Source: an uncultured archaeon
Lineage (GTDB): Archaea; Asgardarchaeota; Lokiarchaeia; Sigyniarchaeales; SOKP01
Direction: 5' to 3'
Assembly (NCBI GenBank): GCA_964632315.1
Contig: CAZWEM010000018.1
Coordinates: 7,894 to 31,893 of the forward strand
Length of the DNA stretch: 24,000 nt
A model generated the notes under the pieces. The model did no database searches. It worked only from the letters and a program-made list of their open reading frames with translations, and was not told where the DNA came from. Made by a program: the position numbers and the translations under genes. How positions within the stretch are numbered: position 1 is the first letter of the stretch; each line of letters begins with the position of its first letter. Shown in pieces: positions 3,984 to 16,090 of the stretch.

Positions 3984-4535
3984 TTATATCTTTTCTCCTT
4001 GCTTTTCAAGGATCTCAAACACCAAAGTTTTAAACGCATTATCCACATTCTCTCCCAGTTTTGCACTGGTTTCAATGAATTTACTTGCTTTAATCTTCTC
4101 AGCCAAACTTTTCCCATCATTATCTGAGATCATTCTTTGGTCCTTTAAATCACATTTATTCCCAATTAAAAGGTATGTTCCCTCTTTCTTAACAAATTTT
4201 TTAAAGTCATTGAGCCACTTAGTTTCAATGGTATTGAATGTGTTAGATCTCGTAATATCATATACTAATAGAGCTCCTACGCATCCTTGATAATATAAAC
4301 TCCTCACGACATTATATTTTTCTTGTCCTGCTAAATCCCATACAATTAATCTAACTTTGGCATTTGAATTTTCTAATATTACATCTTTTCGGATGATATT
4401 TGCTCCTAGAGTTGGTTTATAATCTTCTTCAAAAGCATTTTCAACAAATTGGTTTATCAGAGACGTTTTTCCTACAGCACTATCTCCTAATATTACGATT
4501 TTAAAAACGTATTCCCTTGTTTCTTCTGTCGACAT
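3984..4535 (-). CDS. Ras-superfamily small GTPase, Rab-like
   Basis: 183 aa. G1 GDSAVGKTS, G3 WDLAGQE, G4 GNKCD, G5 ETSAK, and a Rab-like YYQGCVGALLVYDIT segment. There is no C-terminal Cys prenylation motif (ends ...EKQGEKI). Confidence 0.9.
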   Translation of the reverse strand: MSTEETREYVFKIVILGDSAVGKTSLINQFVENAFEEDYKPTLGANIIRKDVILENSNAKVRLIVWDLAGQEKYNVVRSLYYQGCVGALLVYDITRSNTFNTIETKWLNDFKKFVKKEGTYLLIGNKCDLKDQRMISDNDGKSLAEKIKASKFIETSAKLGENVDNAFKTLVFEILEKQGEKI

Positions 4536-4633
4536 GCTTTTTTTTTCACCCGATAATTTGTATGAAATTATTTTAAAATTGGATGAAGTTATATTTAACT
4601 ATTTATTGATTTTTGAAATAAAATAGTTATACC

Positions 4634-5221
4634 TTATTCAAGAATTTTATTTTCTATTAAAAGCGTCAATCTAAACGAATTATGATTTGGGGAATTTATA
4701 TTTTCTTTAATGCTTATAGGTCTAACTATCTTTTCAGAAGGTAGGGATTTTTCTAATGAATTAATAAGAAAAGCTTTGAAAAGATCGCATGAAATTCCGA
4801 TTTCAGAACAAAAAACACATTTTCTTACGTCAATTACATATTTAATATCTGATTTCTCTGAAATTTCAACTTTCCAATTCGTTTCTATCAAGCGATTTAT
4901 ATCGACAATAATCTCTTCGAATTTTTTCCCAAATGGATATAAATAAAATGAGAATTTTCGACCTATTTCATATAATAATTGAGATGAATCATAAAGTAAA
5001 CAATTTTGCGCAGTAATTATCTTTTTAAATGAAAAAAAATCAATTGTCCCATCCGGATCCACATCTCGAAGATCTTTTAAATCTAATAATTCTGCTTCTC
5101 GTAAAATAGATTTCATTCCATCATAATCAAGTGTATCTAAATAAGATTGGAGGAGTGCAGTTATTACGCGATTCTTAACACTACCTCTATATGCTCCAAT
5201 CATCTCAGAATTATTATCCAT
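4634..5221 (-). CDS. Hypothetical protein, tentatively V4R-like
   Basis: 195-aa ORF, co-directional with and 98 nt upstream of the GTPase gene. Its C-terminal half (LYEIGRKFSF...VIDVRKCVFCSEIGISCDLFKAFLINSLEK) has the Cys-punctuated helix pattern reminiscent of V4R domains. The match is weak and needs profile or structure search. Confidence 0.45.
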   Translation of the reverse strand: MDNNSEMIGAYRGSVKNRVITALLQSYLDTLDYDGMKSILREAELLDLKDLRDVDPDGTIDFFSFKKIITAQNCLLYDSSQLLYEIGRKFSFYLYPFGKKFEEIIVDINRLIETNWKVEISEKSDIKYVIDVRKCVFCSEIGISCDLFKAFLINSLEKSLPSEKIVRPISIKENINSPNHNSFRLTLLIENKILE

Positions 5222-5425: not shown

Positions 5426-7126
5426 TTATTCTTCAACAGTTTTAAGAATGTCTTCAATCTCAGATTGAATGACTTCTGCTTTCTTTGCTTGTTCTCCTTT
5501 TATGGCATTTCCAAGCTCGATCCGTTCACGATGGAGCGTATTCATGGCGCAAAATGGAACCTCTAATACCCTAGCATTGTCGTCGGGATCAATAACTCCA
5601 TAATGAACCAAGCACCTGCAAACTCTCTGGAGATCAAAGTTATATGCATCCTGGAAGTGCATGGCACTAATTAATAAGTTTTTAGTATGTAAGAAATTAG
5701 CTGCTGATGCAAGATTTGGAGCCATTACCAATCGAGCAAAACTCTGGAACGTTTGACTGGTTAAGATTTTTGCAGGATCCTTGACATATCTCATTGCCCC
5801 AGCCAAGTAGTAAGCTTTCATCATCTGACGATATCCTAGATTTGTCATGTCATCGATAAACTTACCAATAGTATTTGGAACGGAACCAAAATCTTCTAGA
5901 TTAATACCTTTTAGAAAATTAGTAGGTTTAGGAACCTCTTGATTTTGTACCATATCATATACTTTATTGGACCATCGAACGAGGCCCTCAGTATCGAAGT
6001 AATTTTCAATAGGCTCCCATTCATTGTTTTTATTAACAATACAAATTGTTGCAAATCCACAATCTTTATGACTCGTCATGGAAAATTCTGGAACATCATC
6101 AAACCAAGCAAGTAACCGAGTCATTTTTGCAGTCGTTGCTATAGGATAAAATCGCGCGATCGCATTGTTTGTAGCTTTATTAATAGCCACCTTTAAATCT
6201 GAGGTGGTATATCTAAGATCCATTAATTCTTCGAAGCTTATTCGACCACATAAAGATACTGGTTGGAAAACAACACCTGAGACCACATCCGTATTTTCTT
6301 TAGCAAAATTCAATATAGGTCCTACTTGATGATCATTAACACCTTTGGCAACTGTTGGTACTAATACAACTCCAAAAAATCCTATTTTTCTTGCATTTTC
6401 AATTACCTTTTTCTTTAGGGGCCATAGATTTACTCCCCTAACTTTCTTCCATGTTTCAGGATCGTCAGTAGCATCAAATTGGAGATAACAAGCTTTCATA
6501 CCTGCGTCCATGCACTTTTTCATGAATTCGGGAGATTTTCCAAATCTTACTCCATTAGTTGTAACCATGACTTCAACAAAACCAAGCTCAACTCCCTTTC
6601 TTATGATATCTGGAAGATCATTTCTTACTGTTGGTTCTCCTCCAGATAATTGGAGTAATACAGGAGATATTGGTCTCATTGATCTAAAATGTTCCATTAT
6701 TTGAACTATTTGGTCAAAAGTAGGTTCGACAACATAACCTTTTGCGCTAGCGTTTGCGAAACATATTGGACAAGTGAGGTTGCAACGATTCGTAATATCA
6801 ATCAAAGCAATATTTGGAGCGCTTTTATGATTTTGACATAAACCACAATCATTTGGGCATCCACTGCTAATATCCTTAATACCAGAGTTTACAAATTCTG
6901 GTTTCGTTGAGTTATCAATAGTAGAACCTAAATCATCAGTAAAAGTTTCAGCCCATTTATATTCTTCGGGATCAATGGAGAGCTTGTCCTTGAATTCTCC
7001 GTGTTCATCGCAATTTTTCCTCATCATGACCCAATTTGTCTTTGGATCAACATAAATTTCCGCGTCAATGGTCTTCATGCATTCTGGACAAATGCTTTGC
7101 GTGCGCCTTATAATTTCTTCAGTCAT
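5426..7126 (-). CDS. Radical SAM enzyme, COG1964-type; tetraether lipid synthase (Tes/GDGT-MAS)-like
   Basis: 566 aa. It has an N-terminal rubredoxin-like CPEC...CDEHG site and an auxiliary Cys cluster, GCPNDCGLCQNH. These are followed by the radical-SAM motif ITNRCNLTCPICFA, the SAM-binding LSGGEPT, and further C-terminal Cys residues (CRCLVHYG...FCAMN). This arrangement matches what I recall for the MJ0619/Tes family. Confidence 0.8.
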   Translation of the reverse strand: MTEEIIRRTQSICPECMKTIDAEIYVDPKTNWVMMRKNCDEHGEFKDKLSIDPEEYKWAETFTDDLGSTIDNSTKPEFVNSGIKDISSGCPNDCGLCQNHKSAPNIALIDITNRCNLTCPICFANASAKGYVVEPTFDQIVQIMEHFRSMRPISPVLLQLSGGEPTVRNDLPDIIRKGVELGFVEVMVTTNGVRFGKSPEFMKKCMDAGMKACYLQFDATDDPETWKKVRGVNLWPLKKKVIENARKIGFFGVVLVPTVAKGVNDHQVGPILNFAKENTDVVSGVVFQPVSLCGRISFEELMDLRYTTSDLKVAINKATNNAIARFYPIATTAKMTRLLAWFDDVPEFSMTSHKDCGFATICIVNKNNEWEPIENYFDTEGLVRWSNKVYDMVQNQEVPKPTNFLKGINLEDFGSVPNTIGKFIDDMTNLGYRQMMKAYYLAGAMRYVKDPAKILTSQTFQSFARLVMAPNLASAANFLHTKNLLISAMHFQDAYNFDLQRVCRCLVHYGVIDPDDNARVLEVPFCAMNTLHRERIELGNAIKGEQAKKAEVIQSEIEDILKTVEE

Positions 7127-14711: not shown

Positions 14712-15191
14712 TTAATCTTTCTGAAAAACAATCATAAATTCACAGAAATCTTCTCCTGTTTGTAAAGCGCAATTTACTTCTTGAGCAAAACAATGAAAAT
14801 TTATCATTCTTTCAACGATTCCTGCAAGTATTCCGGCTTCAAAGGAACAAAAACTTCCGTCTGATTTGATTCCCTTGCCTATCAAATCTTTAATTGATGA
14901 ATGTTCTTTTAATTTTAACTGAATAATTTCTTCTGAACTGTCAGTAATTTCAACTTTTCCAAGATTATAATCGTGAATTATTTTTTTTAATGATTCAGGG
15001 ATCTGATATACATCATTTAATTGTTTGACTTTTAAGATCGTTCCAAGTTCATGCCCCAAATAATAGAAAATGGCTTCTAATTGATGTCCTAGAGCTAATA
15101 AAGCTCCTACTTTCATATCTCCTATTTCTTTACCTTTTTCTAAATGATTCCTCATTTGAGCTAAAATTCCAGAAAGTAATTGTCTATCCAA
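14712..15191 (-). CDS. V4R (4-vinyl reductase-type) domain protein
   Basis: 159 aa. The C-terminal FCSFEAGILAGIVERMINFHCFAQEVNCALQTGEDFCEFMIV matches the V4R signature (C.f.aG.l.G......v.E..C...G...CeF.i). It is the last gene of a three-gene co-directional cluster. Confidence 0.75.
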   Translation of the reverse strand: MDRQLLSGILAQMRNHLEKGKEIGDMKVGALLALGHQLEAIFYYLGHELGTILKVKQLNDVYQIPESLKKIIHDYNLGKVEITDSSEEIIQLKLKEHSSIKDLIGKGIKSDGSFCSFEAGILAGIVERMINFHCFAQEVNCALQTGEDFCEFMIVFQKD

Positions 15192-15221
15192 TCATTTCAC
15201 TTCCTAATTTTTTAAATTATT

Positions 15222-15518
15222 TTATTCAATTTCTACTGATGAGATAAAACCGTATAAAATCGCATCGATAATGTCTTCTTCTTGGATATTAATACTTAAT
15301 TTCTTATCAGCGATTATAATTGTAGGTAATGAAGTTACCTTATAATGCTGGGTTAGTTTATAATTTTTACTTACGTCTATTTTTTCAATATATAATTTCT
15401 TTCCAAACATTGATAAATTTATTCTCTTCAACATTTCTTCGACAGGTTGACAAGGAGTACAATGTGGAGATGAAAAAAGTAATATTTTCGGATATCCACT
15501 TTTCAAAGCACTTGACAT
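15222..15518 (-). CDS. Thioredoxin-fold protein (thioredoxin/glutaredoxin-like)
   Basis: 98 aa. It has the CxxC motif HCTPCQ near the N-terminus and the cis-proline context VTSLPTIII. Size and beta-alpha-beta layout are typical of small archaeal thioredoxins. Confidence 0.75.
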   Translation of the reverse strand: MSSALKSGYPKILLFSSPHCTPCQPVEEMLKRINLSMFGKKLYIEKIDVSKNYKLTQHYKVTSLPTIIIADKKLSINIQEEDIIDAILYGFISSVEIE

Positions 15519-15550
15519 TTACAATCCTTATAACCTATCTAAATAAATTT

Positions 15551-16090
15551 TTATTGATCTTTATATTTTTCATACAAATTCATAATTATTGCTTGAAATG
15601 CTTTATAAACCCCGTTTCCTGTTTTTGCTGAAGTTTTATAGTATCCAAGAAAATTTCTTTCATTAACAAGTTGAATTGCTTTATCATCATCTAAATTATC
15701 TAAATCTACTAGATCGATCTTGTTTCCAAATAGCATTATTGGAATATTTCCACAGTATTTTTTAATATCCTCATGCCATTCACTTACATCCTCAAAACTT
15801 TCCTCTTCATCTGGGTCATGGGAAAAAACAATTATTGCTGCCTTACTCCCCTTATAAAACGTAGGACGCATGAAACTGAACTGTTCTTGACCTGCAATAT
15901 CCCAGAAAAAAAGCTTTACGGCATTTCCCGCAATTTTTTCATCATATTTCGAAAATTGGGCTCCTAACGTCTTTATATATTCCTTTTGGAAACTGCCCTT
16001 CGTATATTTTCGTATCAATGATGTTTTGCCAACGCCCCCATTGCCTATTACAGTAATCTTGAATACAAAATCTTTCCTTTCCTCATTCAT
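15551..16090 (-). CDS. Ras-superfamily small GTPase, Rab-like
   Basis: 179 aa. G1 GNGGVGKTS, G3 WDIAGQE, G4 GNKID, G5 KTSAK. There is no C-terminal Cys motif (ends ...YEKYKDQ). Confidence 0.9.
   Translation of the reverse strand: MNEERKDFVFKITVIGNGGVGKTSLIRKYTKGSFQKEYIKTLGAQFSKYDEKIAGNAVKLFFWDIAGQEQFSFMRPTFYKGSKAAIIVFSHDPDEEESFEDVSEWHEDIKKYCGNIPIMLFGNKIDLVDLDNLDDDKAIQLVNERNFLGYYKTSAKTGNGVYKAFQAIIMNLYEKYKDQ

Follow-up and report, generated by a model that had tools for sequence, protein, structure and literature searches.

A divergent V4R-fold protein encoded beside a Rab-like GTPase across the archaeal class Lokiarchaeia

The gene pair and the fold of its upstream member

The genomes of Asgard archaea encode Rab-, Ras- and Rag-like GTPases by the dozen, and to our knowledge almost none of these small GTPases can be assigned a regulator or an effector. 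We consider here a stretch of DNA of 24,000 nucleotides from an uncultured archaeon of the class Lokiarchaeia (the whole of this stretch is termed 'the window' in what follows), where the gene of a Rab-like small GTPase comes directly after that of a V4R-like protein. The window is AT-rich, with a G+C content of about 31%, and it lies on contig C18 of a genome of 4.45 Mb in 119 contigs. Both genes are on the minus strand. The upstream member of the pair (4634..5221) codes for a 195-residue divergent protein of the V4R/Bet3/H-NOX superfamily, with a V4R fold. The downstream member (3984..4535) codes for its conserved partner, a GTPase of 183 residues (Pfam Ras, E value 1.3e-52). They are separated by a spacer of 98 nucleotides on the same strand (4536..4633), comprising, ahead of the start codon of the GTPase gene (ATG), a TATA-like box, TTAAATAT (4591-4598), and a GGTGA that resembles a Shine-Dalgarno sequence (4546-4550). 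A first-pass annotation, made from the sequence alone, had noted a 195-codon frame placed 98 nucleotides upstream of a co-directional Rab-like GTPase: both open reading frames are present exactly as it described them.

That the upstream frame is a real and conserved gene follows from its 387 homologues of about 195 residues, found in metagenomes labelled Lokiarchaeota, Promethearchaeota and similar; some of them carry the JGI name 'predicted hydrocarbon binding protein'. It is present as a single copy in the window genome. With 77 Ras-family matches in 4.45 Mb, a gene taken at random would have a chance of a few percent of being the neighbour of a GTPase. The adjacency of the V4R-like and GTPase genes goes far beyond chance because, as will be seen, it is kept across the whole class Lokiarchaeia.

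The downstream gene had also been read correctly as that of a Rab-like GTPase. Its best matches among solved structures of the Protein Data Bank (PDB) are Rab11, a Thorarchaeota Rab, Rab1a, Rab14 and Rab8A, and the G motifs are readily seen in its translation (GDSAVGKT, the switch I threonine, WDLAGQE, NKCD and SAK). The C-terminal prenylation cysteine of eukaryotic Rabs is absent from the window GTPase, which ends with ...LEKQGEKI.

The nature of the upstream protein asks for a more graded answer. No Pfam or NCBIfam family matches it above cut-off, and neither it nor 25 of its homologues match the Pfam V4R model (PF02830, gathering score of 31 bits), even at an E value of 10; ATC_hydrolase alone appears in their Pfam scan (E 0.018-0.031). 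Structure prediction is more telling. An AlphaFold2 model built on a 26-sequence alignment (predicted local distance difference test score 88.3, predicted template-modelling score 0.87) has helices at residues 17-42, 62-75, 80-94, 101-111 and 146-158, and strands at 117-123, 127-133, 164-168 and 183-191. Such an arrangement, in which five helices pack against an antiparallel sheet of four strands, is that of V4R. When compared to the PDB with Foldseek, the top full-length matches of the model are H-NOX domains (E 2e-5, template-modelling (TM) score 0.56-0.61). Below these come the V4R protein MJ1460 (2oso, E 0.026), YslB, Bet3/TRAPPC3 (about 0.04) and BcsD/CesD, with 3njc also among the matches; the Bet3 structures concerned are 1wc8, 1sz7 and 2j3r (E 0.04-0.05, TM 0.38-0.40). 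The same set of folds was met around the Thorarchaeota TRAPPC3-like protein, Thor-TRAPPC3, by Tran et al. (2024; PMC10933270). A fold unrelated to V4R or Bet3 would have spoken against the first-pass reading, and the predicted structure instead belongs to the V4R/Bet3/H-NOX group.

Homology to V4R proteins is traced through intermediates. A profile of the window family retrieves, at E values of about 1e-14, two distant relatives that belong to other families of the class, and both pass the Pfam V4R cut-off (54.5 and 45.7 bits against 31). The cut-off is likewise passed by nine relatives from metagenomes that bear the name 'V4R domain-containing protein [Candidatus Helarchaeota]'. Profile-profile comparison by hhalign of 26 homologues of the window protein (alignment A1, 65-94% identity) with the group labelled Helarchaeota (alignment A2) gives a probability of 98.4%, with an E value of 5.5e-15 over 151 columns. 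Alignment A2 in turn matches the second V4R family of the window (hhalign 88.6%) as well as MJ1460. A class-wide profile (A5) compared to the PDB finds the V4R protein MJ1460 at 5.4e-8, the H-NOX domain of the soluble guanylate cyclase (sGC) beta-1 subunit at 0.009 and Thor-TRAPPC3 (7yh3) at 0.015. The 4634-5221 product is thus a divergent V4R-fold protein, its fold and its V4R homology being shown by these results. The V4R-like nature first suggested by a loose pattern of cysteines has stood, with the predicted fold, with the hhalign match to proteins recognized by Pfam as V4R and with the cysteine helix that had been singled out, since this helix aligns with the V4R core of the proteins labelled Helarchaeota; the support is indirect, in that the Pfam model does not match the protein itself. 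The likeness proposed between this protein and the V4R protein encoded at 14712-15191 of the window has fared less well: compared directly, the two show no relationship (BLASTP E 0.68; hhalign probability 2.4%), so that the link between them is only transitive.

The stretch punctuated by cysteines corresponds to residues 133-158. C135, C138, C145 and H180 are invariant in the 26 homologues of A1, as are long N-terminal motifs, among which the signature of the window family, D-G-x-x-S and E-x-G-R-K-F-x-x-Y-L-x-P-x-G. The orthologues labelled Helarchaeota have four invariant cysteines. Two of these have C138 and C145 as their counterparts in the alignment, and H180 is at most one column away from the last; the third cysteine of the orthologues is lost in the window family, and the new C135 creates a C-x2-C motif. 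Both Thor-TRAPPC3 and PoxR have four-cysteine zinc sites (PMC10933270). By analogy, a Cys3-His zinc site is likely in the window family; the putative metal-site coding region extends over 4682..4819 (minus strand), with C135 at 4817-4819, C138 at 4808-4810, C145 at 4787-4789 and H180 at 4682-4684. Across the class, the invariant residues lie towards the N-terminus (D34, G35, S38, A43 and G87), to which F183 must be added. We also considered an EF-hand, the profile of the close family drawing marginal calmodulin/EF-hand matches, and only these, in the PDB on DVDPDGTIDFF. The glutamate of position 12 is absent, and the EF-hand-like loop, DVDPDGTIDFFSF (residues 53-65), is not conserved across the class or outside the window family, so that this candidate was rejected.

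Conservation of the pair across Lokiarchaeia

A search among 1.84 billion cluster representatives gave 101 proteins at E values up to 1e-3, the intermediate ones being used to build a new profile. The V4R-like family was found in 119 of the 134 genomes of the GTDB family to which the window belongs (f1 hereafter) and in other families of the class: 3 genomes out of 14 in f2, 3 out of 4 in f31, the single genome of f33, both genomes of f32, both of f3 and all three of f4. Every Lokiarchaeia family sampled thus carries it, usually as one copy per genome. The same profile search found it in none of about 240 genomes from other Asgard families. Among the genomes searched, the family is restricted to the class Lokiarchaeia.

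Within f1, all loci with enough flanking sequence (about 45) display the V4R-like gene, then the orthologue of the window GTPase on the same strand, then an aminotransferase gene. Outside f1 the flanks differ. In the loci labelled Helarchaeota, the GTPase gene follows in five cases out of five, with a gap of -4 to 9 nucleotides, and what comes next is an S13-S4-S11-RpoD operon, not an aminotransferase. The further primary copies, from f2, f31, f32, f33, f3 and f4, have a same-strand Ras-family GTPase as their next gene in 12 cases out of 12, after a gap that is mostly 0-42 and at most 204 nucleotides, amid unrelated flanks. All 17 primary copies outside f1, distributed over six families, are therefore followed by a GTPase gene, and the GTPase linkage of orthologues, on which the first-pass annotation had made its proposal depend, holds there as it does in the 45 or so loci of f1.

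Whether the neighbour is everywhere the same GTPase is a question of orthology, in genomes with about 60-77 GTPase paralogues each. The window GTPase and the partner from loci labelled Helarchaeota are reciprocal best hits, at 51% identity; their match scores about 152 bits, and the one that comes next 139-140. A quick maximum-likelihood tree had placed the latter beside another paralogue; when partner monophyly was imposed, the tree was better by 23 log-likelihood units (approximately unbiased (AU) test, p 0.76). A careful IQ-TREE analysis of 110 GTPase domains was then made, with 57 other paralogues of the window genome, 46 domains from partner loci and 7 more from the loci fetched. The smallest clade with all partner-locus GTPases has a support of 100/93 and holds only four paralogues of the window genome besides, three of them in a long-branch group. 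Its topology mirrors taxonomy, in that f1, f2 and f31 are separated from f3, f4 and f32. The AU test on this data set does not reject partner monophyly (p 0.69), and here too the constrained tree scores better. On these grounds the partner GTPases are one orthologous clade. The clade has residues that are rare in the paralogues: V10, A20 (in the P-loop), E32, P41, L43, I47, T99, D110 and A150. P41 and L43 flank the switch I threonine and I47 belongs to the interswitch; several of these signature positions sit on the face that is normally used by regulators and effectors.

Absence is informative as well. The one-contig genome G213 (family f2, genus g10) has no V4R-like gene, and its best match to the window GTPase reaches 144 bits, against 180-221 bits for partners of the same order. 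Judging from these scores, the V4R-like gene and the partner-clade GTPase seem to be missing together.

The spacer varies more than the order of the genes. It has 1-170 nucleotides in nearly all loci of f1, with one case of 378, and mostly -4 to 42 in the other families, where the gaps leave no room for an intergenic promoter. An A/T box like TTAAATAT is found upstream of the GTPase gene in 31 of the 46 distinct sequences of f1; as a promoter, such a box is only suggestive in AT-rich DNA. A scan for sigma-70 promoters and intrinsic terminators gave counts at the level of shuffled sequence, and such a bacterial-type scan is inapplicable to an archaeon.

What the pairing may mean

It is rather probable, in our view, that the GTPase encoded downstream has in the V4R-like protein its dedicated sensor, regulator or effector. 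The two genes would make up a module inherited vertically since the ancestor of Lokiarchaeia, with, as its upstream member, a fast-diverged protein of the V4R-fold family whose usual four-cysteine site would have been rewired to Cys3-His in the lineage of the window. Probably a dimer, and sensing a ligand, a metal or a redox state, this protein would dock onto its cognate GTPase at the face formed by switch I and the interswitch, and would either set the nucleotide state of the latter, in the manner of a guanine nucleotide exchange factor or of a GTPase-activating protein, or serve as a GTP-dependent effector. What the analysis shows is the fold, the V4R homology, the conservation of the pair across the class and the orthology of the GTPases with their signature residues; that the two proteins bind each other, which way regulation runs and which ligand or metal takes part are matters of inference.

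Several observations weigh against this reading. Within f1, the aminotransferase gene is just as syntenic as the GTPase gene; synteny inside this family proves nothing by itself, and the decisive evidence is therefore that collected outside f1. In f32, two divergent second copies of the V4R-like gene lack a GTPase neighbour. Genus g4, which belongs to f1, has lost the V4R-like gene, of which tblastn found no remnant, yet a PCC gene is followed there by two GTPases of the partner clade. The spacer of f1, typically 30-130 nucleotides with its TATA-like box, is such that the GTPase gene may perhaps have its own promoter and be transcribed separately. Finally, family f31 is devoid of all the Cys/His residues discussed above, and one lineage of f2 is devoid of the C-x2-C motif, with the GTPase neighbour kept in both; since the pairing is retained where the site is missing, no mechanism based on a metal or on redox can be the core of the function across the class.

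Most of these points would suit neighbours that never touch, kept together by co-regulation, by a shared pathway or by inherited synteny, the V4R-like protein being then a stand-alone binder of small molecules. The general description of V4R domains as ligand-binding modules acting on varied effectors (PMC2253512, PMC10933270) goes in the same direction, as do the possibly independent transcription in f1, the GTPases of g4 left without a V4R-like gene and the second copies of f32. We nevertheless hold this explanation to be unlikely: the pair persists when every flanking gene has changed, in seven GTDB families and several orders, with gaps down to -4 to 13 nucleotides; the partners belong to one orthologous clade among some 60-77 paralogues per genome; and both genes are absent together from G213. 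Neutral or merely co-regulated adjacency fits poorly with class-wide retention amid such changing flanks. Another proposal sees in the V4R-like protein a subunit of the Bet3/TRAPPC3 type, an exchange factor, or part of one, for the adjacent GTPase, prefiguring the action of TRAPP on Rab1 and Rab11. V4R has been put forward as the ancestor of Bet3 (PMC2253512), and Bet3 in TRAPP touches the Rab (Ypt1) directly, its C-terminus forcing switch I open (PMC10152722). Bet3 structures are indeed among the Foldseek matches, the class-wide profile reaches Thor-TRAPPC3, and Rab11 and Rab1 are the best solved relatives of the GTPase, although many other Asgard Rab-like GTPases likewise match these two best. 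However, no Pfam match to TRAPP_Bet3 (PF04051) was obtained, and the family stands nearer to the archaeal V4R protein MJ1460 in sequence and to H-NOX in structure than to the Bet3 structures, which rank below both. In addition, TRAPP catalysis relies mainly on longin subunits (PMC10152722), and no longin-like gene was recognized in the flanks of any module locus. We see this as a distinctly improbable account of the pair.

The structural matches raise yet another idea, that of a haem sensor of nitric oxide or O2 of the H-NOX type, signalling to the GTPase as H-NOX proteins of bacteria do to the kinases or cyclases next to them. H-NOX domains account for all of the first 29 Foldseek matches, which extend over the full length (E 2e-5 to 1.5e-2, TM 0.50-0.61), and the class-wide profile touches the sGC beta-1 domain. 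Against it stand the lack of a Pfam HNOB match and the nature of the invariant columns, in which the sole histidine is H180, in the region of the last strand, with none on helix 101-111, and from which the Y-x-S-x-R motif is absent; sequence homology, for its part, leads to V4R proteins with cysteine sites. This makes the haem sensor very hard to believe in. Stand-alone H-NOX proteins of bacteria remain an instructive parallel, as the best full-length structural match and as small sensor-fold proteins encoded by the side of a signalling protein, differing from the window protein in that the latter has a Cys/His cluster in lieu of the haem-ligating histidine and of Y-x-S-x-R, and has a GTPase, not a kinase or a cyclase, for partner.

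To return to a V4R-like protein acting on its own GTPase, modules of the MglA/MglB type, where a prokaryotic Ras-like GTPase is encoded beside a regulator with a Roadblock fold, have a similar layout. In both cases, a GTPase of small size and a likewise small regulator fold without enzymatic activity are encoded as neighbours and inherited together, but here the fold of the partner is that of V4R instead of Roadblock/LC7, a Rab-like GTPase takes the place of the MglA-like one, and the regulatory role is putative. With the proteins of PF02830, such as MJ1460 (2OSO/2OSD) and the sensor domains of PoxR and DmpR, the window protein shares the fold of five helices and four strands, a transitive homology and a cysteine-punctuated helix at the core. 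It differs from them in being missed by the Pfam model, in its site, C-x2-C-x6-C plus a histidine, which some sister families lack, in its family-specific N-terminal signature and in being encoded with a cognate GTPase, a pairing that we did not find described for V4R in the literature searched. With the TRAPPC3-like protein of Thorarchaeota (7YH2/7YH3; PMC10933270) and with eukaryotic Bet3/TRAPPC3, it shares the fold of the superfamily and a Rab or Rab-like partner (a proposed one here), and with the former an Asgard origin and a zinc site (putative here) in a similar region, tethering the sheet to a helix. The differences are a marginal similarity in sequence, a structure less similar than that of H-NOX and a module without longin.

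A full-text search of the literature on V4R or Bet3 with Asgard or GTPase retrieved only Tran et al. (2024) as relevant, and the V4R-like/GTPase pair was not found described. According to these authors, the GTPase genes of strain MK-D1 do not in general share operons with Roadblock, longin or TRAPPC3 genes, and genome layout generally does not reveal GTPase pairings (PMC10933270); the pair considered here, conserved across a whole class, departs from this pattern. The module names one GTPase clade and one candidate partner with a V4R/Bet3 fold, co-inherited throughout Lokiarchaeia, and because it points to one specific clade and one partner, both small soluble proteins, the pairing is directly testable. 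If the partner does regulate the GTPase, this would be the first case outside eukaryotes in which a fold of the Bet3 type is functionally linked to a Rab-like GTPase, and would bear on the origin of the TRAPP-Rab system. If it does not, a new V4R subfamily that Pfam misses will still have been recognized. One may go further and imagine, as a speculation to which we give little credit, that the relationship between the Bet3 fold and Rab survives in this pair in a prokaryotic form, in which a dimer of the V4R/Bet3 fold controls nucleotide exchange on its own GTPase; fixed in the ancestor of Lokiarchaeia, it would tell us that TRAPP-Rab began as a two-gene sensor-switch unit, before longin was recruited.

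A second module and other neighbouring genes

The window holds another association of the same kind (14712..16090, minus strand), with a Rab-like GTPase (15551-16090), a thioredoxin (15222-15518) and a V4R protein (14712-15191), all three identified by Pfam matches. The order GTPase-thioredoxin-V4R is kept in 40 of the 41 loci of f1 and f2, including that of a one-contig genome of 4.4 Mb; the exception is locus L127, where the GTPase gene is on the opposite strand. Like the first pair, it keeps a Rab-like GTPase near a V4R-fold protein in Lokiarchaeia. It differs by its V4R subfamily, by its GTPase clade, by its gene order, which is opposite, and by the thioredoxin placed in between. Its V4R protein resembles the C-terminal domain of MsvR, and this subfamily was found only in f1 and f2, not in the families labelled Helarchaeota. 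The first-pass annotation had surmised that the window comprises two independent pairings of a GTPase with a V4R-type protein, and this is what we find: both are conserved, with distinct V4R subfamilies, gene orders and phyletic ranges. This argues for functional coupling.

In all, the window genome has two Pfam-level V4R matches plus the 4634-5221 protein, and two of these three V4R-type genes adjoin a GTPase gene or sit within one gene of one. The one other Pfam V4R match of this genome (G000) is weak, at 18 bits (contig C20:10877-11014), and lies 8 kb from a divergent GTPase (C20:2287-2796) that is a member of the long-branch trio nested in the partner clade. We looked for fusions between V4R and GTPase domains in other Asgard classes and rejected them, the V4R frames of roughly 420-570 codons there carrying either a single V4R domain or two of them, without a GTPase domain. 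Proteins of about 500 residues with two V4R domains and no GTPase domain, from other Asgard families, are encoded for example at L131:1171-2673, L134:2442-3935 and L135:2333-3874. A general adjacency of V4R and GTPase genes in these classes was likewise rejected, the neighbours not being GTPases, save for a weak Ras-like frame near tandem V4R arrays. Such arrays occur in two complete one-contig genomes of family f15 (L136:2948-5482 and L137:3374-5246); they consist of three or four V4R genes, each about 200 codons long, and the weak Ras-like frame is found at a distance of one or two genes.

Upstream of the V4R-like gene of the window is the gene of a 566-residue radical SAM protein with an N-terminal zinc ribbon of the HMPTM type (5426-7126, minus strand). 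The two genes adjoin in the genus of the window only; elsewhere the radical SAM gene is several kilobases off, or GTPase paralogues stand in its place. Several genera of f1 have one or two such extra GTPase paralogues in tandem upstream, often with a PCC/PF03479 gene. This PCC/PPC gene (PF03479, DUF296) is found in most genera of f1, where it either immediately precedes the V4R-like gene or lies between the GTPase paralogues found upstream (examples are L035:7206-7634, L041:6599-7027, L045:3378-3809, L040:5445-5882 and L147:7296-7724, among others), and no homologue of it was found in the window's own genome. A lone GTPase paralogue of the latter (contig C46:21533-22081 of G000) groups with the upstream tandem paralogues of other genera, which suggests that the genus of the window has lost or relocated its tandem copies.

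Lastly, some V4R-GTPase pairs are accompanied by a gene coding for a fusion protein of 312-318 residues, in which an N-terminal domain of about 140 residues is joined to a Ras-family GTPase that forms a clade of its own (support 100). It lies at L049:6927-7883 (plus strand), L083:1271-2209, L085:2287-3225, L183:1399-2337 and L191:4185-5141, and is divergent in the genomes labelled Helarchaeota, directly downstream and on the same strand in f32. To the eye only, its N-terminal domain looks Roadblock-like.

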